64,000 nt of DNA. Source: an uncultured Undibacterium sp. (lineage in GTDB: Bacteria; Pseudomonadota; Gammaproteobacteria; Burkholderiales; Burkholderiaceae_D). This document shows, piece by piece, positions 3,573 to 42,976 of the stretch. The notes below the pieces were generated by a model. That model saw only the letters and a program-made list of their open reading frames with translations. It was not told where the DNA came from and searched no databases. The stretch spans positions 2,551 through 66,550 of the forward strand of contig CAUPNA010000004.1 in the NCBI GenBank assembly GCA_963512475.1, given 5' to 3'. The position numbers were made by a program, and so were the translations under genes. Numbering within the stretch: the stretch's first letter is position 1; each line of letters starts with the position of its first letter.

Positions 3573-3827
3573 TTATCGCTTTAACTTCGCTTCGAAAGCG
3601 ATGTCCAGTTTGCTGGCTTTGCGTGGTGCTTCTTTTTGTACGCTATTGACGAAGCGCACAAAGTCATCGATGTCTAATGCGGTACAGAGTTGCTCTGGCG
3701 ATTCAGGATCATGGCCTAGCACCAGATAAAAATGCCCACTGCCTGTGCTCACCATCGAATAGGGCGCATTATTGCTGCGTTGTTTTAAACGTAGCACGGC
3801 ATTACTTGCTTTGGTTGAACGTGCCAT
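3573..3827 (-). CDS. Hypothetical protein (84 aa)
   Basis: ORF with AAGGA RBS filling an intergenic gap; no recognised motif. Confidence 0.6.
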   Translation of the reverse strand: MARSTKASNAVLRLKQRSNNAPYSMVSTGSGHFYLVLGHDPESPEQLCTALDIDDFVRFVNSVQKEAPRKASKLDIAFEAKLKR

Positions 3828-3961
3828 AGTTTCCTTACTATTTTGATGGAGCGCGAGCTATTGTATTTGGTGTCGATATTTAGTTTCGTAAATCGTCTCG
3901 AAACTTAATCTGCAACATGATAATCTAGACGCTGGATTTGGAGAATACCAGAAGGATAAGC

Positions 3962-11389: not shown

Positions 11390-13348
11390 ATGTTTTATCC
11401 AAATGAATTCGATGTCATCGTCGTAGGCGGCGGTCATGCCGGTACAGAAGCCGCTTTGGCTTCCGCACGCATGGGCCAAAAAACCTTATTGTTGACCCAT
11501 AATATTGAGACCTTAGGGCAGATGTCTTGCAATCCATCGATAGGTGGAATTGGCAAAGGCCATCTTGTGAAGGAAGTCGATGCTATGGGCGGCGCAATGG
11601 CAATTGCGACCGATGAGGCGGGCATACAATTTCGGATTTTGAATTCATCTAAAGGCCCTGCGGTGCGAGCGACACGCGCGCAGGCTGACCGTATTTTGTA
11701 TAAGCAAGCGATCCGTAGTCGTCTTGAGAATCAAGAAAACCTGTGGATATTCCAGCAAGCGGTTGATGATTTGTTGGTTGAGGGTGATAGAGTGGTTGGC
11801 GCTGTGACACAAGTCGGCTTGAAATTTAAGGCGCGAGCGGTGGTGTTGACAGCGGGTACTTTCCTCGATGGGAAGATCCATGTTGGTTTGAATAGCTACT
11901 CAGCCGGCCGTGCTGGTGATCCGCCAGCGATCTCTTTATCTAGTCGCTTGAAAGAATTGGCGCTGCCGCAAGGGCGTCTAAAGACGGGTACGCCGCCGCG
12001 TATCGATGGTCGTAGTATCGATTTTTCTCAAATGGAAGAACAGCCGGGTGATCTCAATCCCATTCCAGTATTCTCAGTTATGGGCAATGTTGGGATGCAT
12101 CCGCGTCAAGTACCATGCTGGATTACCCATACGAATGCCAAAACACATGACATTATCCGCGCTGGCTTAGATCGCAGTCCGATGTACACGGGCGTGATCG
12201 AAGGTGTTGGGCCACGCTATTGTCCATCAATTGAAGATAAGATTCATCGCTTCTCAGGCAAGGATTCGCATCAGATTTTCCTTGAGCCTGAAGGCCTGAC
12301 AACAAACGAATTCTACCCAAATGGCATTTCTACCAGCCTGCCGTTTGATGTGCAACTGGAGCTGGTGCGTTCCATGCGCGGTATGGAAAACGCCTATATT
12401 TTGCGTCCCGGCTATGCGATTGAATACGATTATTTTGATCCAAGAGGATTAAAAACTTCTTTAGAAACACGTTCTATCCAAGGATTATTCTTCGCTGGCC
12501 AGATCAATGGTACGACTGGATACGAAGAAGCTGCAGCGCAAGGGATGTTGGCGGGTCTCAATGCAGCATTGCAAACGCAGGGCAAAGAGGCTTGGGTGCC
12601 ACGTCGTGATGAAGCCTATCTGGGTGTGTTGGTCGATGATTTGGTAACGAAAGGCGTGCAAGAGCCTTACCGTATGTTCACCAGTCGCGCCGAATTCCGC
12701 CTCAGTTTGCGTGAAGATAATGCCGACATGCGCCTGACTGAGATCGGTCGCAAGCTTGGTTGCGTCAGCGATAAGCAATGGCAAATGTTCGAAGAAAAGC
12801 GTGAAGCGGTTTCACGTGAAATGGAAAGATTAAAGTCAACCTGGGTTAATCCACGCATCGTTGACGATGCAGAAGCTGAGCGTGTGGTCGGCAAAGCATT
12901 GGAGCGTGAATACTCACTGGCTGATTTATTGCGCCGTCCGCAAGTGACCTACGATCACTTAATGACGCTCAAAGGCAAAGAAGGACAATCTTTAGCAGGC
13001 GAAAACCTTGCAGATCCAGCAGTCAAAGAGCAGATAGAAATTCAAATCAAATATTCCGGTTATATCGGACGTCAGGCCAAAGAGGTCGAACGTCAGGCAT
13101 ATTATGAAAATCTGAAAATGCCAGACGACTTTGATTACTTGGAAGTGAACGGTCTCTCTATCGAAGTGAAGCAAAAACTGAATGCACAAAAACCAGAAAC
13201 TTTAGGGCAGTGTGGTCGCATCTCCGGCGTGACGCCTGCGGCTTTGTCCTTACTGCTAGTGCATCTGAAAAAACGTGGTTTTAAAGGTTTTGCTAATGCA
13301 GCACCAGCCAATGATGAAGAATTAAATGTCAAAGTGGTGGGTGAATAA
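11390..13348 (+). CDS. mnmG: tRNA uridine-5-carboxymethylaminomethyl(34) synthesis enzyme MnmG (GidA)
   Basis: [61 protein letters not shown]. Confidence 0.98.
12808..12823. promoter_or_regulatory. parS: parS-like site inside mnmG
   Basis: gGTTTCACGTGAAAtg; 12-bp core TTTCACGTGAAA intact. Confidence 0.65.
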
Positions 13349-13351
13349 GCT

Positions 13352-13999
13352 ATGAGTCGTTTTGATAAAGAAGCTCTGGGAAATGAGCTGAGAGAAGGTA
13401 TTGCCTCCTTAGGTCTGCCATTGAATGAAGAACAAGTAGAAAAAATGTTGGCCTACTTGGCTTTATTGATCAAGTGGAATTCGGTCTATAACCTCACTTC
13501 CATTCGCGATCCGCATGACATGGTCAAGCAACATTTGCTCGACTCTTTGTCGGCAGTGCATGCTTTTACCCAAGCGAAGAACATTCTTGATGTCGGTTCT
13601 GGTGGTGGTTTGCCAGGCATAGTCTTGGCGATTGTTTTTCCAACCGCTTCAGTGACGATGATTGATATCGTCAATAAGAAGACCGCGTTCCTGACACAAG
13701 TGAAAGCTGAGCTCAAGCTCAAAAATGTTACTGTGCACACAGGACGCGTCGAGCTTTTGAAAGTCGAGCACAAATTCGACGTGATTACGTCGCGCGCATT
13801 TTCCGAGTTAAATAACTTCATCAACTGGTCGCAGCATCTGTTGACTGAGGATGGGCGCTTTTTGGCGATGAAGGGTGTTTCCCCAACACAGGAGATTGAA
13901 CGTCTGCCTGAAGGTTGGGAAGTCGAAAGTATAGAACCTTTGAAAGTGCCAGGTCTGGTTGTAGAAAGACATCTGGTACATGTGAAGAAGCTAGCTTGA
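13352..13999 (+). CDS. rsmG: 16S rRNA m7G527 methyltransferase RsmG (GidB)
   Basis: KWNSVYNLT, HLLDSL, LDVGSGGGLPG, TSRAFS. Confidence 0.96.
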   Translation: MSRFDKEALGNELREGIASLGLPLNEEQVEKMLAYLALLIKWNSVYNLTSIRDPHDMVKQHLLDSLSAVHAFTQAKNILDVGSGGGLPGIVLAIVFPTASVTMIDIVNKKTAFLTQVKAELKLKNVTVHTGRVELLKVEHKFDVITSRAFSELNNFINWSQHLLTEDGRFLAMKGVSPTQEIERLPEGWEVESIEPLKVPGLVVERHLVHVKKLA

Positions 14000-14007
14000 G
14001 CAATTTA

Positions 14008-14023
14008 AGTTACACGTGAAACA
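14008..14023. promoter_or_regulatory. parS: parS-like site just upstream of parA
   Basis: aGTTaCACGTGAAACA, 2 mismatches to consensus. Confidence 0.75.
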
Positions 14024-14070
14024 GCAGTTCCGGGATTTTCTTTTAACCGCAGTTATTCTAAAAAGTGTCT

Positions 14071-14850
14071 ATGGCTAAAATTTTTTGCGTTGCCAATCAA
14101 AAAGGTGGTGTAGGAAAAACTACTACAACGGTCAATCTAGCTGCGGGTTTGGCTAAGCTTGATCAGCGAGTTTTGCTGGTCGATCTTGATCCCCAAGGCA
14201 ATGCCACTATGGGGGCGGGAGTCAATAAAGCCAAGATAGAATTGTCTGTTTACCAAGTTTTGCTGGGTATGGCGGATGTGAAATCTGCCGTGGTTAGATC
14301 GGAATCTGGTAAATTTGACATTCTTCCAGCCAACCGTGAACTAGCCGGCGCTGAGGTTGAAATGGTCGAGTTAGAAAACCGAGATAAGCGTCTACGCTTG
14401 GCCTTAGACCAAGTGGGCGCTGACTACGACTTCATTTTGATCGATTGCCCACCCGCTCTGTCGATGCTGACACTGAATGGTTTATGTGCAGCGAATGGTG
14501 TGATTATTCCTATGCAATGTGAATACTATGCTCTGGAAGGGCTGTCGGATTTGGCGAATACGATCAAGAAGGTCTCCGCTAATTTGAATCCAGACTTGAA
14601 AATTGTTGGTTTATTGCGGGTCATGTTTGACCCACGTATGACTTTGTCTCAACAGGTATCTGATCAACTGGAGCAACATTTTGGTGAGAAGGTATTTAAG
14701 ACTGTGATCCCGCGTAACGTGCGACTAGCCGAAGCACCTTCCTATGGTATTCCTGGCGTGGTATTTGACCCATCTTCCAAAGGCGCACAAGCGTATATCG
14801 CCTTCGGCGCAGAGATGGTGGAAAGAATTAAAGCATTGGATAAGAAATAA
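14071..14850 (+). CDS. parA: Chromosome partitioning ATPase ParA (Soj)
   Basis: ANQKGGVGKTTT, DLDPQGNAT, IDCPP, IPRNVRLAEAPSYG. Confidence 0.97.
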   Translation: MAKIFCVANQKGGVGKTTTTVNLAAGLAKLDQRVLLVDLDPQGNATMGAGVNKAKIELSVYQVLLGMADVKSAVVRSESGKFDILPANRELAGAEVEMVELENRDKRLRLALDQVGADYDFILIDCPPALSMLTLNGLCAANGVIIPMQCEYYALEGLSDLANTIKKVSANLNPDLKIVGLLRVMFDPRMTLSQQVSDQLEQHFGEKVFKTVIPRNVRLAEAPSYGIPGVVFDPSSKGAQAYIAFGAEMVERIKALDKK

Positions 14851-14864
14851 ACCTCTAAATTATT

Positions 14865-15758
14865 ATGGCAACTAAAAAACAAAAAGGCTTGGGGCGTGGC
14901 TTAGACGCTCTATTAGACGGCGCTGGCGATTTTGCCGAAGCGGTACCAACAGTCGTTGGCGCACCGACCAGTTTGCCGGTCACGCAAATGCAAGCCGGTA
15001 AATACCAGCCACGGACTCGTATGGATGAGGGCGCCTTGGCTGAGCTAGCAGCCTCGATTAAAGCCCAAGGCCTGATGCAGCCTATTCTGGTGCGTCCAAT
15101 CGGTCAGGCGAATGGCGTAACCAAATACGAGATCATCGCTGGTGAGCGTCGCTTCCGTGCCTCGCAGATGGCCGGTTTAACTGAAGTTGCTGTCATGGTG
15201 AAAGATGTCGACGATCAAGCCGCTGCGGCCATGGCCTTGATCGAAAATATCCAACGCGAAGACTTAAATCCTTTGGAAGAAGCGCAAGGTATTCATCGCT
15301 TGATTTCGGACTTTACATTTACGCACGAGCAAGCAGCCAATGCGGTAGGGCGTTCACGCAGCGCGGTATCGAATCTTTTGCGCTTGTTAAATTTGGCGCG
15401 TCCGGTACAAACCATGTTGATGGCAGGCGATATCGATATGGGTCATGCCCGTGCATTATTAGCAGTTGACGCTGCAACGCAGATTCAGCTAGCGAATCAG
15501 GTCGTGGCAAAACGAATGTCAGTACGTGACACGGAAAAGCTGGTCACCAAGACCACGGCAGAGTTAGCGACACCGGCCAAGCAAAAAGATAAAGCAGAAA
15601 AATCTCGTGACATTACGCGTCTCGAAGAAGAGTTGTCAGATTTGCTAGCGACCCAAGTGACTTTGAAGATGGGCAGCAAAGGCCGAGGTCAGATGCTGAT
15701 TGATTTTGAGGATTTGGATTCTTTGGATGGCGTGATACTGAAAATTCGTGGGCGGTGA
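14865..15758 (+). CDS. parB: Chromosome partitioning protein ParB (Spo0J)
   Basis: GLGRGLDALL, QPR, IIAGERRFRA, ENIQREDLNPLEEA, HTH with RSAVSNLLRLL. Confidence 0.97.
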   Translation: MATKKQKGLGRGLDALLDGAGDFAEAVPTVVGAPTSLPVTQMQAGKYQPRTRMDEGALAELAASIKAQGLMQPILVRPIGQANGVTKYEIIAGERRFRASQMAGLTEVAVMVKDVDDQAAAAMALIENIQREDLNPLEEAQGIHRLISDFTFTHEQAANAVGRSRSAVSNLLRLLNLARPVQTMLMAGDIDMGHARALLAVDAATQIQLANQVVAKRMSVRDTEKLVTKTTAELATPAKQKDKAEKSRDITRLEEELSDLLATQVTLKMGSKGRGQMLIDFEDLDSLDGVILKIRGR

Positions 15759-34317: not shown

Positions 34318-34905
34318 ATGAACCAACTACTCCAACAGCTCAATTTTTTACGCGAGATTGATCGCCTAAAATCCGTCATTCGACAATCACCCTTGCTAGA
34401 TCAAAGCCGCAAAGAAAACAGCGCAGAGCATTCCTGGCATCTGGCGATGTATGCCTTGCTTTTGCGTGATCATGCTGTGGGTGTAATTGATGTTGAACGT
34501 GTCGTTAAGATGTTGCTCATCCATGACATCGTTGAAGTGGATGTGGGTGACATACCTATCCATAGTGGTGCTTCATCGCAAGATCAAGCTCTCCTTGAGA
34601 CCCAAGCCGCGGCGCGACTGTTTGGCCTGCTGCCCGAACCACAAAACAGCGAACTACTCGCGCTCTGGCATGAGTTTGAAGACGCGATGACCGAGGACGC
34701 TAAGTTCGCCAAAGCACTTGATCGGGTGCAGCCTTTGCTGGTGAATGTCCATACTGGTGGCGGTACTTGGACTGAAAATGGTGTGAGTTTAGAGCAAGTT
34801 CTGCAGCGCTACGGCCCAGTCATCGCGCGCGGTTCGCCAGCGCTGTGGCAAGTTTGTGAGCAATTGGCGAGAGAGCATTTTGCCGCTCAAACGCCTGCGA
34901 TCTAA
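34318..34905 (+). CDS. HD domain-containing hydrolase (YfbR/HDDC2-like)
   Basis: ENSAEHSWH, LLIHDIVE, AKALDR. Confidence 0.88.
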   Translation: MNQLLQQLNFLREIDRLKSVIRQSPLLDQSRKENSAEHSWHLAMYALLLRDHAVGVIDVERVVKMLLIHDIVEVDVGDIPIHSGASSQDQALLETQAAARLFGLLPEPQNSELLALWHEFEDAMTEDAKFAKALDRVQPLLVNVHTGGGTWTENGVSLEQVLQRYGPVIARGSPALWQVCEQLAREHFAAQTPAI

Positions 34906-35136: not shown

Positions 35137-36072
35137 TCAATGCTGATGCCCAAGCCTCACCGTTATGGCCGGATGCCGCTCCACCAATCCCTTCAGCGCT
35201 TGTAAGCTGCTTAGATTACTGGCGTGATCGCGCGTGTAGTCACCTGGTTCTACCCCGTTTTCCCAGCCCCATAGTGTGTGCGAGGTATCGCCTACGATGA
35301 GGACAGGGCCTTGTGTACTGCGTACCAGATAGGCGGTGCTGCCTTTGGTATGACCTGGTACCGCAATCGCAAAGACGCTGCCGTCGCCGAAAATATCGAT
35401 GACCGAGCGGCTGCTTGCGGCTGAGTCTATCTGGTCAAACGCCCATTCTTGCAAGGGTGCCCGATTGGCGAGTAACTGATCAGTGGCGGGGCGCACGACC
35501 ATGTTGAGCCAGTAGGTGTCTTTGCTTTCACCCGCTCCTGTACAGACCGGGACAGACGTCGGTATATCGGGTAAACCACTGATGTGATCGAGATGCAAAT
35601 GAGTGAGAAATACACCGGATAATTTTTGCGGTAATTTGGCCAAAATAGTGGACGTGCTGGTTTTTACCTGCATTTTTTCTAGTTGCATACCTTTCCGCAG
35701 CATCCAGCCAAAACCAAAACGAGCCGGATCTGCTATCAGTTGTGCCGAGACGCCGGTATCGATTAAAAAGTAGCCAAACTGAGGATGTTTAATCACGTAG
35801 GTGAAAATTTGTATCGCCTCATCCTTATCCTTGAGCTGCGCCTGACGTGCTGCTAGGCTATCTAAATTGACTAGCCCGGACAGGGGCACAGACCAGTTTG
35901 CAGCGGTGACAGTTTCGACGTTGATAGTGCCGGGTTGGTCTATCAATGCTTCCATGGTCGCTTGTGTGCTGGGCTTTCCTAAACGCGATGTTTCGGTAGG
36001 ATGATTGCTGCTAGTGCAGGCTTGTAGGACGAATAAGGAAATGAGTGTCAGGCTGAGTGTGAGCTTATTCAT
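35137..36072 (-). CDS. Metallo-beta-lactamase fold hydrolase, lipoprotein (AHL-lactonase-like)
   Basis: LIDTG, THLHLDH, PGHT.G, VGDTSH, LGHQ; lipobox LQAC. Confidence 0.82.
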   Translation of the reverse strand: MNKLTLSLTLISLFVLQACTSSNHPTETSRLGKPSTQATMEALIDQPGTINVETVTAANWSVPLSGLVNLDSLAARQAQLKDKDEAIQIFTYVIKHPQFGYFLIDTGVSAQLIADPARFGFGWMLRKGMQLEKMQVKTSTSTILAKLPQKLSGVFLTHLHLDHISGLPDIPTSVPVCTGAGESKDTYWLNMVVRPATDQLLANRAPLQEWAFDQIDSAASSRSVIDIFGDGSVFAIAVPGHTKGSTAYLVRSTQGPVLIVGDTSHTLWGWENGVEPGDYTRDHASNLSSLQALKGLVERHPAITVRLGHQH

Positions 36073-36107
36073 GTGACGTATCTATCTTTAAGAAAATGGC
36101 GTTTGAA

Positions 36108-36545
36108 TTATTTGTTTTTGACGGGCATAAAGCTCCCGCTGGCATTTCCCAAGCCAAATAAGGGCATATTGACGTAGATATTGCTGTGACTGCCGGCTTT
36201 GATTTGGTAACTTTCATGCCAAATGCCCACCGCAGTATTTCCATCGGAAGCTTGTTGAAACGCGCGCCAAGCGGGCAGGTGTTGGCGTTCTTTGCTTCTG
36301 GCATAGGCGTGTAACTGTTCTAGCGAACGCCAGTACTGCAGTGTGATAATCGTGCGACCAAACCAGGCGTCCGCATGTAATAGACCCAGTTCTGGTTGTG
36401 CGTACAATTCGGTCAGCATTTTCGGCATCGCACGCGCTACCGGCAACCAACGGTGTACTTGTAAAGGCTTATTGATGCGCATGCCGATCAAGAAAAGGAC
36501 AAAATCCCCCTCTAGTTCCGCTTTCATACGATGTGGATAAATCAT
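36108..36545 (-). CDS. DUF4188 family protein
   Basis: FVLFLIGMRINK, LQYWRS.E.L..YAR, H.PAW, GIWHESY. Confidence 0.8.
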   Translation of the reverse strand: MIYPHRMKAELEGDFVLFLIGMRINKPLQVHRWLPVARAMPKMLTELYAQPELGLLHADAWFGRTIITLQYWRSLEQLHAYARSKERQHLPAWRAFQQASDGNTAVGIWHESYQIKAGSHSNIYVNMPLFGLGNASGSFMPVKNK

Positions 36546-36699
36546 CTGGTCGCCTCTAAAATTAACAGTTAAGGCAGTGTCGCATATCCAAATATCTGCG
36601 ACAATTGCCTAAATTCTGATGTATCCATCCGAATTTAAATGAATGCTGCCTCTGCTTGTCGCAGTTGTTCCGATAGAAATGAGACTCAAAGAGGCGCGT

Positions 36700-37596
36700 A
36701 TGGGTTTACGTTGGGATGATGTCAAACTATTTGTGACCGTCGTTGAACAAGGCAGTTTGAGTGCGGCTGCACGTGTTTTACGGCTTGGGCAACCAACTTT
36801 GAGCCGGCGTATCGGTGAGCTTGAAGAAGCGATAGGTGAGAACTTGTTTGAGCGCGCCAGTAGTGGCGTGACTTTGACCCAAGCTGGTGAAAAACTACTA
36901 CCTGCTGCGCAAAGAATGGCTGAATGGGCGCATCAGGCCGAGCAAAATATCAGCCAAAAGACCCGTCTGCCGGAAGGAAAAATCCGCATCGCCGCACCGC
37001 CTGGGATTGCTTTTGACTTGCTGGCGCCTTTAAGCAAACAATTACAGACCAAATATCCCAAGTTATACATGGAGGTCTTGTCAGGCGTAGAAACCTTAAA
37101 CCTAGGACGAGGCGAAGCGGATATCTCCTTACGCACGGCAGCACCGAATGACGAGGACCTGATTTGCCTGAACCAAGTACATACCACCGTTCGTGTGTAT
37201 GCCGCGCCAAGCTATGCGGCAGAACTAGGTGAGCACCCTAAGCTTGAAGACTTAAATTGGATATGCTGGGCAGAGTCGCATGACCACTTGTACGTCAATC
37301 AAAGTTTACGCGCCATGATTCCGAATTTTCGACCAGCTTTTACCTCAGACGATTTCAATGTTCAAGTCGCAGCTTGTCGCGCTGGCATCGGGGTGATGCC
37401 TTTAGCTAAAGCGCCGCATAGGTATTCCGTGATCAATGAGTTGACTGAACTTAATCTGGATTTGGGGCCAGATGCGGTGGGCAGTTTGTATTTGGTGGTA
37501 CACAAGCGCCATCGCTATTTGCCTAAGGTCCAATGTGTCACGGAACTCATTAGTGCAGCGTTTGAAGAACTTAGACAAACGCTCAATCGTCCTTAG
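36700..37596 (+). CDS. LysR family regulator, divergent from DUF4188/MBL genes
   Basis: WDDVKLF, GSLSAAAR.L...QPTLSRRI..LE; start ATG 36700 after GAGG. Confidence 0.9.
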   Translation: MGLRWDDVKLFVTVVEQGSLSAAARVLRLGQPTLSRRIGELEEAIGENLFERASSGVTLTQAGEKLLPAAQRMAEWAHQAEQNISQKTRLPEGKIRIAAPPGIAFDLLAPLSKQLQTKYPKLYMEVLSGVETLNLGRGEADISLRTAAPNDEDLICLNQVHTTVRVYAAPSYAAELGEHPKLEDLNWICWAESHDHLYVNQSLRAMIPNFRPAFTSDDFNVQVAACRAGIGVMPLAKAPHRYSVINELTELNLDLGPDAVGSLYLVVHKRHRYLPKVQCVTELISAAFEELRQTLNRP

Positions 37597-37638
37597 CGCT
37601 GATGTCATCGAGCTTTTCTTGTTGGTACAAGCAAGCGC

Positions 37639-37740
37639 TCAATCACTCCCGCGGCCGCTTACTGGCACGCGTAAATCGTCTAAATAGTCGCCAGCGATAT
37701 TGACGCTGCACGACACGCCCAAGTGTTGGCGGTGCTCAAG
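37639..37740 (-). pseudogene. Orphan duplicate of the patatin gene 3' end
   Basis: Translates LEHRQHLGVSCSVNIAGDYLDDLRVPVSGRGSD* versus RQHLGVSCSVNIARDYLDDLRVPVGGRSS* of 39452-40558; offset 1810 bp. Confidence 0.9.
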
Positions 37741-38090
37741 CAGAGCGTGCATCGCAAATGGCTGCACAATACCCGATCACGCGATTGATAGGATTTGCGC
37801 GTCCTTTTCTATCTTGGTGAGTGCTCGTCAGATCAGGGATAAGACTTTGTAGTGCGTTGTCTGTTTGGGTTGATGGAGAGCCTAAGTCTCTGCTGAAAAG
37901 TGTCATTCGCGTACTCAGCTTTTCTGAAAATCACCTGCACCTTTTGTCGGTTTGTTTAAACCAAGTTGTTGTAGGGTATAAGCAAATTCAGCTAAGCCTG
38001 ATGCGGGTTTCCAGAAGGTAGAAACAAATTGCCAAATTTTTGATGGTCGGTTATCTTTGCAATTTGTTAAATAAAATCGCGTTATATGCC

Positions 38091-38390
38091 ATGAGCGAAA
38101 CAAATAAGCGCACATTGAAATTTTTGGCCATCGCAATTGTCGGTTGCCTTGCGCTATCGTTTTTCTTTCACGTTCCTTTCATTTATACGCTTTGTGGATT
38201 TGCTGCTTGGATGGCATTTGGTCATTTGATTACTATTGATGACGACGCTCCTGGCGGCTTCAGCAATTCAGGCGAAAACAAAATGATATGGCGTCATTCT
38301 TTACTTGAATTGGTTTTGAAGTTCGGCGTACTTATATTTTTATGTGTGCTTGCTTTTACAGTTCCAGTAATTAGAAGCTATGGTGCTTAA
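38091..38390 (+). CDS. Cassette 1: small membrane protein
   Basis: ATG 10 nt after core site GTTATAT; 3-4 hydrophobic segments. Confidence 0.75.
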   Translation: MSETNKRTLKFLAIAIVGCLALSFFFHVPFIYTLCGFAAWMAFGHLITIDDDAPGGFSNSGENKMIWRHSLLELVLKFGVLIFLCVLAFTVPVIRSYGA

Positions 38391-38402
38391 TATGAACCAC
38401 GC

Positions 38403-38456
38403 ATATAACTCAACATTTGACGCCGACGCTTCGCGCCGGTCAATTTAGCGTTAGAA
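38403..38456 (+). mobile_element. attC: attC site 1
   Basis: R'' ATATAAC, 5-bp spacer, L'' ATTTGAC, stem cgccgacgcttcgcgccg, L' GGTCAAT, spacer, R' GTTAGAA. Confidence 0.85.
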
Positions 38457-38461
38457 GGCAT

Positions 38462-38821
38462 ATGGATACGTTGCGACTGGGAGAAAGGCTCGATGAGCTC
38501 ATACTAAAGTATCGCGAAATCGCTTTCTCTTCATGGGAAAGGAGTTGTCCGTCCAGCGAACACCATTTCAACGACTATGCACCGGGCGATCCAAATGACT
38601 CAACGTGGTGGCAAGCAGACACAGATGTTCTTGAAATCGTTCTTGATTCCGACGGTCAAAAATGGGCTAATGTCTCGATCGTACTTTATCCGCAGGGTGT
38701 CCACTCTCTCCCTCCCGCTCTATCAGCGGGTCTGGCGATATATGAGGACGGACGTGTCGAAGGCATTTGGGCGAGCGGAGAGAAGTTCGATCACATACAG
38801 GTGCGAAACGATGCCATCTAG
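38462..38821 (+). CDS. Cassette 2: hypothetical acidic protein
   Basis: ATG 12 nt after GTTAGAA core; stop lies in inverse core atgccatcTAGc. Confidence 0.7.
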   Translation: MDTLRLGERLDELILKYREIAFSSWERSCPSSEHHFNDYAPGDPNDSTWWQADTDVLEIVLDSDGQKWANVSIVLYPQGVHSLPPALSAGLAIYEDGRVEGIWASGEKFDHIQVRNDAI

Positions 38822-38866
38822 CATGACATTCATAACGGACGCGCGCCGCACAATTCAGCGAAAAAT
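38816..38866 (+). mobile_element. attC: Degenerate attC site 2
   Basis: R'' ATCTAGC (expected TTCTAAC); R' gAAaaatgcc where gTTaaatgcc is predicted from cassette 3 inverse core ggcatttaac. Confidence 0.65.
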
Positions 38867-38886
38867 GCCAAGTTTAGAGGATTTCA

Positions 38887-39312
38887 GTGACTATCAAAAT
38901 TGAACAAAGTAATTGGTCTGAGGCGAGTAAGCGTTCTTTCGCCTACGGCGGATCTTTTTTGTACAGTGGCTCTGATCCTGATTGCTACGAAAACGTTGTG
39001 TGTCGTTGCTTCAAGTGCGAGCAGTCATTCGTATTCACCGCCAAAGAACAAAAAATTGCCTTCGAAGTCCACAAGCAATATGTTTGGAAGCCAAAGAGGC
39101 GCTGTAATCAGTGTCAGCTTAAGCTTGAAAATATTCAAACTCGTGAACGTGAATTACAGCTCGCCTGGAATAAAAATGGCAAAGTTCTTTGTTTCGATCG
39201 CAATTTTTTGGAAGAATGGCTAACAATCTTGGAGTTGATTCCGCTTTTTGGAAAGAGGGAAAATAGTTCCGCAATCAGAATGTTAAGGAAAGCTTTACTT
39301 GGAGGCATTTAA
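38887..39312 (+). CDS. Cassette 3: zinc-ribbon (zf-trcl-like) protein
   Basis: CFKC..SFVFTAKEQ...P.RRCNQC four-Cys pattern. Confidence 0.75.
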   Translation: MTIKIEQSNWSEASKRSFAYGGSFLYSGSDPDCYENVVCRCFKCEQSFVFTAKEQKIAFEVHKQYVWKPKRRCNQCQLKLENIQTRERELQLAWNKNGKVLCFDRNFLEEWLTILELIPLFGKRENSSAIRMLRKALLGGI

Positions 39313-39396
39313 CATAACAGTCGATGGTGGTGCCGCGCTGCTGCTTTCTCCCTGTGCCAGCCGTATCGCGCGGCGCACATCACTTTTACGTTGAAG
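39307..39396 (+). mobile_element. attC: attC site 3 (90 bp)
   Basis: R'' ATTTAAC, L'' AGTCGATG pairs with L' CATCACT with one extrahelical C, inner stem ccgcgc/gcgcgg, R' GTTGAAG. Confidence 0.85.
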
Positions 39397-39451
39397 CATA
39401 ACTGACCGCATGACTCACAGCGATGACACTTCACTTTCACAACTACACCGC

Positions 39452-40558
39452 TCAACTACTACGCCCACCAACCGGCACGCGCAAATCATCCAAATAATCA
39501 CGGGCAATATTCACGCTACACGACACACCCAAGTGTTGGCGTTGATCTTGCAGCCATTGCTTGGCGCAGCTTTGCCCGAGGTCACGTAACTGATAAATTA
39601 GTTTGGCGTCAGTTTGTGATTTGCTGGAGGCAGGATAGGCTTCGAGTTGTTCGCCGCCGTCGATGCGATGCATGAGAACGTCTTTGTAGCGAGTGGCATC
39701 AAGTTTGTTCTCCGCCAACAGACGCTTAACAAAATCAATCGCGCGCATCTCAGCGATGAGGGCTGAATTAAACGTCATTTCGTTGAGTCGGTCTAAAATA
39801 TCGGCCGAGGTTTTTGGCAAGCTATCGCGTCGAATCGGATTGATCTGCACCAGCATGATGTCGCGACTTTGGCATTCGTAAATGAGCGGATGTATCGCCG
39901 GGTTCCCCGAATAACCCCCGTCCCAATAATGTTCGCCTTCAATTTCTACTGCCTGAAACACGGTGGGCAGACAAGCCGATGCCATGACCGCATCGGCAGT
40001 CAGGCGCTGGCCGCTAAATATCTCGGCCTTGCCGTCGCTGACTTTGGTCGCGACTACAAACACTTTCAACTGCGTGCATGTCGCCAGTCGGTCAAAATCA
40101 ATTTGACGTTCTAGAAAGTCTTTGAGCGGATTAATATCTAAGGGATTACTTTGATAGGGCGAAATAGAACTGGTCCATAGACTACCAAGCGATTCAGAAA
40201 ACATTTGCGCCGGTGAGTGCGCGCCAGCAAGAGCCGCCATACCACCAAACAAAAGATCAAACGGTACACGATGTGCGTGTGCCAGGCTATTTTGCATGGC
40301 GTTCATACTGATGACGCCGTCCCAAAAATCCTTTAACGACTGTCGTGCTGCCTCACGCCGCACCAGTGCAGATTTTTTATCCGCTAGTGCAAAGCCGTGT
40401 GCCATTGCTACTGCATTCATGGCACCAGCGCTGGTGCCACTCACGCCTTCAAATTGGATAGTGCCATCGTCGAGTAAGGCATCAAGTACGCCCCAAGTGA
40501 AGGCACCATGTGAACCACCACCTTGTAATGCCAGATTGACGATATGTTGCTTGCTCAA
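39452..40558 (-). CDS. Patatin-like phospholipase/esterase
   Basis: LQGGGSHG oxyanion loop, GTSAG nucleophile Ser, WDGGY catalytic Asp. Confidence 0.92.
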   Translation of the reverse strand: MSKQHIVNLALQGGGSHGAFTWGVLDALLDDGTIQFEGVSGTSAGAMNAVAMAHGFALADKKSALVRREAARQSLKDFWDGVISMNAMQNSLAHAHRVPFDLLFGGMAALAGAHSPAQMFSESLGSLWTSSISPYQSNPLDINPLKDFLERQIDFDRLATCTQLKVFVVATKVSDGKAEIFSGQRLTADAVMASACLPTVFQAVEIEGEHYWDGGYSGNPAIHPLIYECQSRDIMLVQINPIRRDSLPKTSADILDRLNEMTFNSALIAEMRAIDFVKRLLAENKLDATRYKDVLMHRIDGGEQLEAYPASSKSQTDAKLIYQLRDLGQSCAKQWLQDQRQHLGVSCSVNIARDYLDDLRVPVGGRSS

Positions 40559-40928
40559 ATGAATCTCCCTATGGGTGTTTTTTGCGATTGGGGCGAGGCT
40601 GCGATATCGTCAGAGTATAACGCTTGTGTATCTCGGCCGTGACTTCTTGCTTACGGGAAGAAGCGTACATGTGCGTCTTCGTTGAGCATAAAGCCTATTT
40701 GAGGTTGAATGAAACAATTTCCAAATTCGGCGATAAGTTTTATGATGGTGCTAGAAATTAAGGAAATCGTATGCTACGCCAAACTACTCAATTCGCCTTA
40801 GTGCATTGGCAAATATGTTCGCTAGTAAACCTATTTCGAATTACGATTGGCGAAAGTTTTGAGTTGATATAGCTTGAACAGAGATACTTAAATTATTATT
40901 CTTTTTTTTGTTTGTTATGGGACTTCAC

Positions 40929-41378
40929 ATGCAGTTGATATTTACAAAAGGCTCGGGCAAACACGATCAAATGGAAGTGATGCGCAACGGCGTCGTCGCC
41001 GAAAGCATAGCGTGCCCAAAGCAGGGAATTATTCCTCATGATATGGTGCATTTTGGTGTTGAGAGCACATTGCACAAACGCGGATTTGTTGATCGTATTC
41101 TTCACGGAGAAGCGGCAACATTTCAGATGGAATCAGAACCAGAAAGTGATGGCGTAGAGCGTCTGGTTGAAGTCTTTCAAGCAGACGGCTGGTCTGGCTG
41201 GAATAGTGCTCCCGCTGATATGTTGGATTTGTATCAGGTCACTTGTCATGCACGTCAATGTGAGCCCTTGCAATTGAGCCTAGAGGATATTGATGCGGTA
41301 CGTAAAAAACTTTTAGAGCTGACCGCGCAATGGCAATTGGTCGCGATAGGCGAGTCTTTGGTTTTGCAATTCGAATAG
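40929..41378 (+). CDS. Hypothetical protein with a PHDMVH...E motif
   Basis: 150-aa ORF, GGGA RBS before ATG 40929. Confidence 0.7.
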   Translation: MQLIFTKGSGKHDQMEVMRNGVVAESIACPKQGIIPHDMVHFGVESTLHKRGFVDRILHGEAATFQMESEPESDGVERLVEVFQADGWSGWNSAPADMLDLYQVTCHARQCEPLQLSLEDIDAVRKKLLELTAQWQLVAIGESLVLQFE

Positions 41379-41422
41379 AGTTGATTTGATACATCGCCTT
41401 GTTTCACAAATAAGGAGGCAAA

Positions 41423-42154
41423 ATGAGCATCGCAGCATCCACCCAGCAATCAGTCACAACGGTAGTTAAGCAGTTAGAAGCGTTAGGTCTGGAATCTTAC
41501 CGCAACACCATGCGCAAACATGGTGCGCAAGAACCTATCTTCGGTGTCAAAATTGAAGAGATGAAGAAGCTGATGAAGCCTTATAAGAATGATCTGGCTT
41601 TTGCTTGTGCTCTGTTTGATACTGGGATTTATGACGCGCAGTATATGGCGGGTTTGCTGGCCGACGGTAGCAAGATGAGTGCGGCGCAATTGCAGCACTG
41701 GGTAGAAACGGCCAACTCGCATGGCATACGTGAATACAGTGTGGCATGGGTAGCGGCAGAGAGTTCGCATGCCATGTCCTTAGGATTGGCGTGGATAGAT
41801 TCTGATAACCACGATATTGCAGCCGCTGGCTGGTGCACGCTGAGTAGTTATATCTCAGTCACAGACGATGCGGATTTGGATTTGAAGCTATTACAAAAAC
41901 TGCTCAAGCGCGTGCAAGCTGGGATTCATCAAGCACCAAATCGTGTGTCTTATTGTATGAACGGTTTTGTGATTGCTTTGGGCTGCTATGTGTCGGCACT
42001 CAGCGAAGCAGCAATTCAAGCCGGACAAAAAATCGGCGAAGTCGTTATCGATGTCGGTGATACATCCTGTAAGGTACCGTTCTCGCCAGACTATATTGCC
42101 AAAGTCGCGCAGCGTGGTAGCTTGGGTAAAAAGCGTAAGACGACCAAGTGCTAA
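41423..42154 (+). CDS. DNA alkylation repair (AlkD-like HEAT repeat) protein
   Basis: KHGA.EP.FGVK, ALFDTG.YDA.Y.A, NRV.YCMNGFVIALG. Confidence 0.8.
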   Translation: MSIAASTQQSVTTVVKQLEALGLESYRNTMRKHGAQEPIFGVKIEEMKKLMKPYKNDLAFACALFDTGIYDAQYMAGLLADGSKMSAAQLQHWVETANSHGIREYSVAWVAAESSHAMSLGLAWIDSDNHDIAAAGWCTLSSYISVTDDADLDLKLLQKLLKRVQAGIHQAPNRVSYCMNGFVIALGCYVSALSEAAIQAGQKIGEVVIDVGDTSCKVPFSPDYIAKVAQRGSLGKKRKTTKC

Positions 42155-42163
42155 GGACCTAAA

Positions 42164-42976
42164 TTAGCTTTTACTCTGCAAGCTCTTTTCATATTCACCC
42201 GGCGTCATTCCTATCAAGGCACGAAAATCTCGACCGAAATGCGCCTGATCAAAGTAGCCTAGTTCCAGTGCCAGATCACTCCAACTACAGGTTTTACCCG
42301 CCTGCACTTGGGCGATGGCTTGATGCAAGCGGTAGCGTTGAATTACCCACTTTGGACTGGCACCGACATAGACTTGAAACAGGCGTTGCAAGCTGCGTTT
42401 GTCTAAACCGGTATGTCTGATTAAATCGTCGACGCTAATCAGACTGCGATCTTGCTCTATGTCTTTGAGTAATTGATCTAGGAAATTTAGTTTGGGATCT
42501 GCTTCAGGTAAATACGCCAATAGAAAATGCTCTGCCACTTCGCACATCGCCGAAAAATCTCGTGCCGCTTCAATTCCTGCCACTAGATCCTGATCGCCAG
42601 CAGCAAAACAGACGTTGATATCAAGTGTTTGATTATGAATATCTGCGATGGGTTTTCGGTGAAATGAATAAAAACCACCTGCCTTGAATTTGATACCAAA
42701 GACTCGGTCTTGTTCTGCCAATTCTCGTGTGAACCGCTCGCTGTGTACGCCGTAAATAAGTGCTTTTCCTTGCTCTACGATGAGATGTACATTCGGATGC
42801 GGCAAGGTTGCTTGCTGTTGCGGTGGGCATCCACGCAAATCCCAACTAACGAACCAGTAATGCGCAACGAATTGCGCTAATGAAGCGCTAGGGGCTAGGC
42901 GCAGATGTTGAAATTGCCCTTCGCTAAAGTGAGGGCGTAGTACACCGCGCGGTTCATGGTTTTTCATATTGTTCAA
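42164..42976 (-). CDS. AraC family regulator with N-terminal DUF6597-like domain
   Basis: LAQFVAHYW, TLPHP, FGIKF; RSLQRLF..YVG.SPKW, GYFDQAHF.RDF. Confidence 0.88.
   Translation of the reverse strand: MNNMKNHEPRGVLRPHFSEGQFQHLRLAPSASLAQFVAHYWFVSWDLRGCPPQQQATLPHPNVHLIVEQGKALIYGVHSERFTRELAEQDRVFGIKFKAGGFYSFHRKPIADIHNQTLDINVCFAAGDQDLVAGIEAARDFSAMCEVAEHFLLAYLPEADPKLNFLDQLLKDIEQDRSLISVDDLIRHTGLDKRSLQRLFQVYVGASPKWVIQRYRLHQAIAQVQAGKTCSWSDLALELGYFDQAHFGRDFRALIGMTPGEYEKSLQSKS

Follow-up and report, generated by a model that had tools for sequence, protein, structure and literature searches.

The DNA considered here is a window of 64,000 nucleotides on contig C4 (CAUPNA010000004.1, positions 2,551 to 66,550) of an uncultured Undibacterium sp. 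(GCA_963512475.1), a metagenome-assembled genome (MAG) of 250 contigs that we refer to as G000. In this window the gene for a patatin-like phospholipase is accompanied by a second copy of its own 3' end, and a short array of integron-type gene cassettes lies between the two copies. We consider it somewhat more probable than an even chance that the duplicated end is the scar of an illegitimate recombination with a second, once-functional patatin allele, which took place at the CALIN head (a CALIN being a group of attC sites that lacks an integron integrase, after Cury et al. 2016, PMC4889954) through import of a foreign neighbourhood. The initial annotation of this stretch had interpreted the duplication as gene-end replacement by an integrating element. 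Judging from the sequence comparisons described below, this interpretation mostly fails, and a scar at the CALIN head is most likely the best reading.

Pairwise alignment of 37661-37731 with 39471-39541 is gap-free and shows 12 mismatches in 71 nt (83% identity), exactly the number counted in the initial annotation. By a repeat search of 37400-39800, the arms of this direct repeat extend to about 93-99 nt (77% identity over 99 nt) at a spacing of 1810, and no other direct repeat of at least 20 nt is present in that interval. The pair was also recovered by self-BLAST of the whole genome (83 nt, 80.7%, E<=1e-6). A whole-genome scan for comparable short direct repeats returned 87 pairs, most of which, at a guess from their size and spacing, are paralogues or repeat elements. 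The left-hand copy, hereafter the relic, translates on the minus strand as RQHLGVSCSVNIAGDYLDDLRVPVSGRGSD followed by a stop codon, while the C-terminus of the patatin gene reads RQHLGVSCSVNIARDYLDDLRVPVGGRSS and stop; the relic has one codon more than the gene tail. Across the 29 sense codons of the gene, the two differ by 13 single synonymous changes and three amino-acid changes. The excess of synonymous differences is thus real and extends beyond the 71 nt first considered, and the protein-level selection on both copies that had been deduced from it is borne out. Because of this ratio, we regard the relic as the displaced 3' end of a patatin gene that once worked. Homology between relic and gene runs out ~6 nt beyond the stop codon, so the relic derives from a patatin gene with another downstream context. 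As first described, both copies hold a perfect 14-bp block, CCCAAGTGTTGGCG, at their gene-proximal edge (37718-37731 and 39528-39541). It coincides with the truncation point of the relic and with the codon run RQHLG, which is conserved in all Undibacterium orthologues. In a related genome with the same arrangement (G010), the block common to both tails is only 12 bp long and differs from that of G000.

On its inner side, the relic abuts the remnant of an unrelated gene. Patatin homology stops at 37731, and homology to a gene that we label VOC (from reading the sequence, not from a Pfam match) starts at 37729-37732, with VOC nucleotides 254-335 corresponding by BLAST to 37729-37805. The letters at the join, GCG(G), are compatible with both parents and represent a microhomology of 3-4 nt. 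The VOC remnant holds an internal insertion of ~38 bp and is 80-84% identical at the nucleotide level to the VOC genes that adjoin an array leader in G021, G076, G041, G008 and G020. The match continues collinearly into the leader of the array, as it does at the intact VOC-leader loci of G021, G076, G041, G078, G020 and G008. The 14-bp block, which had been proposed as a crossover core, is the edge at which a truncated relic meets a truncated VOC gene. The same relic/VOC junction is found, letter for letter, in G000, G010 and G099; this shared junction and the scaffold around it imply that the relic arose once.

Two other origins of this stretch were considered and rejected. A six-frame protein search seemed to carry the patatin match past the 14-bp block (residues 312-368), but the added stretch is VOC sequence (80-84% in five genomes, collinear with the leader) and is only about 55% similar to patatin after gapped alignment. 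A recent tandem duplication of the VOC 3' end, array and patatin tail is at odds with copies that are ~20% diverged and whose homology ends 6 nt past the stop.

Comparison of the locus across 84 Undibacterium species representatives places the array before the relic in time. In G021, G076, G008, G041 and G078 the gene order is p195, gene A, an intact VOC gene, leader, cassettes, the convergent patatin gene and an alkylation-repair gene (alkyl). Leader-headed cassettes also adjoin patatin in G024 and G082, and the contigs of G020 fit the same order. None of these eight genomes has a second patatin tail. Since eight relic-less species already have a leader-headed array beside patatin, five of them with an intact VOC gene, the array is older than the relic, and the proposal that the cassettes arrived together with the duplication has to be given up. 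In G000, G010 and G099 the left side is built differently: p195 is followed by an MBL-fold gene, a monooxygenase gene, the LysR gene and the patatin relic, which is joined to the VOC remnant and leader. The LysR gene forms the right end of a block with the MBL-fold and af470-like monooxygenase genes, and this block is confined, as far as this locus is concerned, to these three genomes; G020 and G024 have it at other places. As a synteny anchor, the LysR neighbourhood of G020 was of no help for patatin. G082 shares the right side of G000 (patatin, GNAT, A, alkyl) and has the array, with neither LysR block nor relic.

Orthologues of this patatin gene reach 83-98% amino-acid identity across 10 species of Undibacterium; at the listed Burkholderiales loci from outside the genus the figure is 63-76%. 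A second patatin tail within about 6 kb was found in 0 of the other 78 patatin-relative loci from other taxa, and the Comamonadaceae outgroup loci were uninformative on local gene order. G000 and G010 are 88-92% identical across the LysR-to-alkyl locus (35137-42200) and 87% across mnmG-rsmG-parAB (11390-15758). G076, G041 and G024 reach 88-89% in the housekeeping stretch and only 77-79% in patatin. The nearest relatives are also discordant along the locus: p195 is closest to G082 (94%, vs 79% for G021), and alkyl to G021 (91%, vs 86% for G082). These patterns suggest that the locus has been exchanged between lineages.

To decide which tail is the vertical one, ten Undibacterium gene tails, three relics and one outgroup were aligned. 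The tail attached to the gene of G000 is of the type common to all 10 Undibacterium orthologues. It is the detached copy that stands apart (…GTC AAT ATC…CCA GTA AGC GGC CGC GGG AGT GAT TGA), identical to orthologues outside the clade at 58-60 of 83 positions and to the G000 and G010 genes at 66-68 of 83. The initial annotation had the native end displaced by a foreign C-terminus. Displacement of a once-functional patatin end holds good for the relic; it is the attached tail, not the relic, that is of the congeneric type, and this tail is therefore the vertical one and not foreign. Only 3 of the 31 variable tail sites separate genes from relics, while the other 28 fit, across three genes and three relics, neither copy type nor simply genome. 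The G099 gene has relic states at its distal end (VPVSGRGS and stop), the relics of G010 and G099 have gene states in the middle, and gene and relic agree at 83 of 90 positions in G099 and at 68 of 90 in G000. Such mixed states indicate patchwise gene conversion between the tails, and the relic has thereby changed the working patatin C-terminus in at least one species, G099.

From these observations, the following course of events can be proposed. The locus is a conserved Undibacterium hot spot, namely a leader-bearing CALIN between a VOC gene and the patatin 3' end. A second patatin allele, diverged yet once functional, would have lain convergent with a LysR gene. In the scaffold that G000, G010 and G099 share, its terminal 93 bp would have been fused in a single illegitimate event to the VOC gene's mid-part at 37731/37732, with GCG(G) microhomology. 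As the most parsimonious route, we infer that a foreign version of the same neighbourhood (an MBL-fold/monooxygenase/LysR/patatin block) was imported, with homology at p195 as its left anchor and an illegitimate join at its right end. The 5' half of the resident VOC gene would thereby have been lost, the resident array and patatin gene kept, and the incoming tail stranded as the relic. The cassettes between the tails would have turned over independently, with the single integron integrase (IntI) of the genome acting in trans, and the tails, 1.5-2.6 kb apart, would later have swapped patches by gene conversion, whereby the working gene of G099 gained a relic-type C-terminus.

Several points weigh against this scenario. 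The presumed donor arrangement, a LysR gene convergent with a full patatin gene, is present in 0 of the 84 species representatives, and no pre-event intermediate was found among them. It is somewhat coincidental that a tail was stranded only 1.8 kb from the resident tail, and this closeness makes sense only on the assumption that the syntenic locus was what came in. The direction of transfer was judged from parsimony and tail type, the latter blurred by gene conversion, and the case for IntI acting in trans consists of comparative breakpoints. Moreover, in a MAG of 250 contigs, a patatin 5' fragment on contig C67 (see below) may be a mis-binned strain variant.

The array itself was classified by the CALIN criteria of two or more attC sites (R''-L''...L'-R', GTTRRRY) within 4 kb and the absence of intI, whether as gene or as pseudogene, for 4-10 kb. 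Its attC boxes are recognizable at attC1 and attC3, no intI lies nearby and its cassettes have been swapped at G/TT (the slash marks the crossover point), so that we assign it as a CALIN that has kept an attI-like leader and sits between the VOC gene and the chromosomal patatin 3' end. A search with TIGR02249 yielded one intact integron integrase in G000, on contig C146 (434 bits vs a cut-off of 265); there was no match on C4, the matches lying on other contigs, and no intI in or beside the array within the window, as the initial annotation had stated for an integrase. The leader segment 37935-38085 is common to other integrase-less array heads and, over about 38000-38084, aligns with the intI-attI intergenic region of the integron that G000 has on C146 (83% over the last 65 bp, weaker farther upstream). 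It contains a promoter-like TTGCCA-17-TATCTT at 38029-38057, and its G/TT crossover point is predicted between 38081 and 38082 from the sequence and the comparative swap points. CALINs at conserved chromosomal loci have been described in Xanthomonas, and a functional IntI can mobilise CALINs in trans (bioRxiv 10.1101/2025.06.18.660453).

The attC sites were called by eye, fold and comparison. Minimum-free-energy folding is a poor attC detector; by this measure the folds of attC1 and attC2 are not distinct from those of shuffled sequences. The bottom strand of attC3 folds into a hairpin in which R'' pairs with R', and its crossover lies at G39390/T39391. The R' box of attC2 is degenerate (GAAAAAT where GTTRRRY is expected) and the site folds poorly, and cassettes 2 and 3 are probably fused or locked together. 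All three cassette ORFs are orphans. The first, read by eye, likely encodes a membrane protein and has only a weak, below-cut-off Pfam match (EI24), the second has no Pfam match, and the third weakly matches a treble-clef zinc finger. Sites 95-96% identical to attC1 are present in G004 and in G024, where the contig also holds a partial intI match, and an attC of this type is present on another array contig of metagenome run X1. A wastewater metagenome also contains cassette 1, there preceded by another attC. The spacer that separates the patatin stop from the last attC is ~75 bp longer in G099 and G082. The possibility that patatin itself is a reverse-oriented cassette was rejected, as likeness to the leader is limited, in the DNA upstream of it, to a promoter-like stretch, and the variable DNA there is a GNAT gene that has an internal deletion and lacks attC sites.

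Cassette content has been replaced completely between close relatives. Within the same scaffold, G000 holds three orphan cassettes, G010 two other orphans and G099 a single OLD-family nuclease cassette, all bounded exactly by ...AAATCGCG/TTA on the left and G/TTRAAGCATAAC on the right. Identity among the three genomes is lost right after ...AAATCGCGTTA, with content diverging immediately past GCGTTA, and returns at G/TTRAAGCATAAC. The swap points, at about 38083 and 39389, are thus integron crossover points and not the patatin repeats; the orthologue comparison suggested earlier did reveal variable cargo, though at G/TT. The same breaks appear in metagenomes, compared over 36900-40300 in runs including X1, X2 and X5. 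Contigs of related strains from freshwater and wastewater cover both flanks and switch to other sequence at 38083 and 39389. A co-occurring strain in run X2 (depth 73, from the study to which the likely source sample belongs) has flanks diverged by 7-10% and other cassettes, and wastewater run X5 breaks likewise. Because the swap points fall exactly on integron crossover points, we infer that the C146 integrase turns over the cassettes in trans at the leader G/TT and the attC sites. On these comparisons, the array would be more than a stranded remnant and would serve as a platform for cassette acquisition. The G099 cassette (L069, 9202-11064; ~1.95 kb) encodes a 620-aa OLD-family nuclease with AAA_21 and OLD-like TOPRIM domains, which is likely an anti-phage defence gene.

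Copies of the leader occur at three other sites in G000, one of them beside intI; those at C6:19115-19264 and C86:11136-11285 are each followed by attC-type cassettes. Within the patatin-side arrays of G076, G041, G078 and G021 (L053, L054, L071 and L026), the leader is repeated 2-4 times, and a VOC 3' remnant precedes at least two of these internal copies. The VOC end together with the leader thus seems to be a duplicating unit. This opens a broader explanation, which we put forward tentatively as possible but not likely: a 'distributed integron', in which a leader of ~150-215 bp (attI plus promoter-like site, sometimes with a VOC 3' remnant) would be a duplicating module that seeds several integrase-less arrays per genome and sub-arrays per locus, all served in trans by one IntI. 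The junction of patatin tail and VOC would then be a by-product of module-driven rearrangement, and the stranded tail would, as the donor in gene conversion, bring diversity to the patatin C-terminus.

The polarity of the event might also be reversed. A recipient with LysR and patatin and without an array would have taken up VOC-leader-array-patatin DNA, leaving the relic as its native tail; the import would have been anchored in patatin or downstream of it, and its left end, within VOC, joined illegitimately at the 14-bp block. This version comes nearest to the initial annotation, with both the working patatin gene and the array imported, and it yields the same junction and product. The patatin and alkyl genes of G000 are indeed nearer to G021/G020 (91% amino-acid identity) than to G082 (86-89%), while p195 is nearer to G082 (94% vs 79%), and this discordance points to a recombination breakpoint between p195 and patatin. 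We nevertheless hold the reverse direction to be unlikely. The array adjoins this patatin gene in every relative, G082 included, so that an array-less recipient would need loss followed by regain; the patchily distributed part is the LysR block; and it is the relic tail that stands out among Undibacterium tails.

An origin without foreign DNA is comparably doubtful. Here, tandem paralogues in the order LysR, patatin-2, ..., VOC, leader, array, patatin-1 would have suffered an internal deletion from patatin-2 into VOC that left the relic. A single deletion at 3-4 nt of microhomology would account for the junction, and the partial patatin gene on C67 of G000 shows that extra copies do occur. Two full tandem copies are present in no relative. 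In addition, the relic resembles an orthologous allele, with an Undibacterium-type tail and mostly synonymous divergence, whereas the patatin paralogues of the genus, at 45% identity, are far more distant.

The C67 copy (C67:13124-13759, L002) comprises residues 1-212 at 95.8% amino-acid identity and is cut by an IS3-family transposase remnant. A 412-aa gene precedes it, and a 414-aa ORF likewise precedes patatin in G021, the two being alike by position and size. This may be a real extra copy or a contig of a co-binned strain. It was also considered as the missing 5' half of the relic's gene, for which there is no support given the IS3-family cut at residue 212, the other context and the possible co-binning.

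An integration by a site-specific element with its own patatin 3' end, a 14-bp core and the cassettes as cargo, whose integrase was lost or which was mobilised in trans like a cis-mobilisable element (CIME), is very improbable: direct repeats of a gene 3' end that share a perfect block on the side of the gene and show a synonymous-biased divergence, as also known for the gene 3'-end copies of icd/e14, are what it would leave, but no recombinase lies between the repeats (Pfam, ten main ORFs in 35137-42976), C4 has no integron-integrase match, and the sole intact TIGR02249 match is an integron integrase whose sites are G/TT attI/attC; just inside the left repeat there is a truncated chromosomal gene of which relatives have the intact form in this position; the array is older than the relic; cargo varies at G/TT and not at the repeats; the attached tail is the vertical one, a signal blurred by gene conversion; no empty site is seen, with no Undibacterium genome having patatin directly followed by LysR; the contigs of four metagenome runs, weak evidence since contigs drop rare variants, hold no joint across 37731/39541; no second tail lies within about 6 kb at the 78 other patatin loci; and the block of G010 is different and shorter.

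Table 1. Coordinates of the features at the patatin locus (positions in the window).
Feature	Position	Strand	Basis and remarks
p195	34318-34905		Proposed left homology anchor
LysR-family regulator gene	36643-37596	+	Pfam HTH_1 and LysR_substrate; convergent with relic
Patatin relic (3' end of second patatin allele)	37639-37731	-	30 codons and stop; alignments
Illegitimate junction, patatin tail / VOC nt ~254	37729-37732		Alignment with six intact VOC genes; BLAST
Decayed VOC 3' remnant (last ~40 codons of 124-aa glyoxalase-like gene)	37732-37886	+	VOC alignments
attI-like leader	37887-38083	+	Similarity to other array heads and to intI-attI region
Cassette 1	38082-38450	+	ORF 38092-38390; attC1 38403-38456
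Cassette 2	38451-38860	+	Orphan ORF 38462-38821; attC2 38830-38866
Cassette 3	38861-39390	+	ORF 38887-39312; attC3 39312-39396
Conserved spacer, last attC to patatin stop (61 bp)	39391-39451		Starts with R''-like CATAAC
Right-hand repeat copy (patatin gene tail)	39452-39541	-	Alignment to relic
Patatin-like phospholipase gene, intact, 368 aa	39452-40558	-	Pfam PF01734, 96.6 bits
GNAT acetyltransferase remnant, internally deleted	40771-40870	+	Intact (144 aa) in G010 and G082

The GNAT remnant lies upstream of gene A, which encodes 156 aa. A similar architecture to that at the patatin relic was observed at a LysR locus of G020 (L058, contig C44), where the 3' end of the LysR gene (~96 bp) is duplicated at 95% identity (~873-968 vs 3803-3900). 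The repeats enclose a 2.9-kb insert with a histidine kinase and a response regulator and no integrase.

Replacement of a gene 3' end by integrative elements is known for e14 and phage 21 in icd of E. coli and for islands in tRNA genes. The patatin locus resembles icd-type elements in that inserted DNA lies between two copies of a protein-coding gene's 3' end and these copies differ mostly synonymously. It differs from them in that no recombinase, empty site or excision product was found, the attached end is vertical, the left copy borders on its inner side on a broken chromosomal gene, and the cargo varies elsewhere. A duplicated gene end with synonymous-biased divergence is thus insufficient to infer an integrative element, as the same signature results when two versions of a recombination hot spot are joined illegitimately. 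Homology-facilitated illegitimate recombination and deletion scars are part of general bacterial recombination, and the patatin locus shares with them a sharp join of unrelated genes at 3-4 nt of microhomology and mosaic flanks. Unlike such scars, the stranded fragment still serves as a gene-conversion partner, and the route is reconstructed, the donor arrangement not being found among 84 genomes. As to the array, three close species and co-occurring strains show complete cassette replacement at an attI-like leader, an OLD-family nuclease among the cassettes, and this is comparative evidence that integrase-less arrays with such a leader still acquire cassettes through an integrase encoded elsewhere. 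Like known CALINs, the array has three attC-type cassettes with mostly orphan genes, an IntI elsewhere in the genome and a conserved chromosomal position across species. Unlike them, it retains a leader of ~150 bp homologous to a real intI-attI intergenic region, and its whole cassette content has been replaced at this leader between close relatives.

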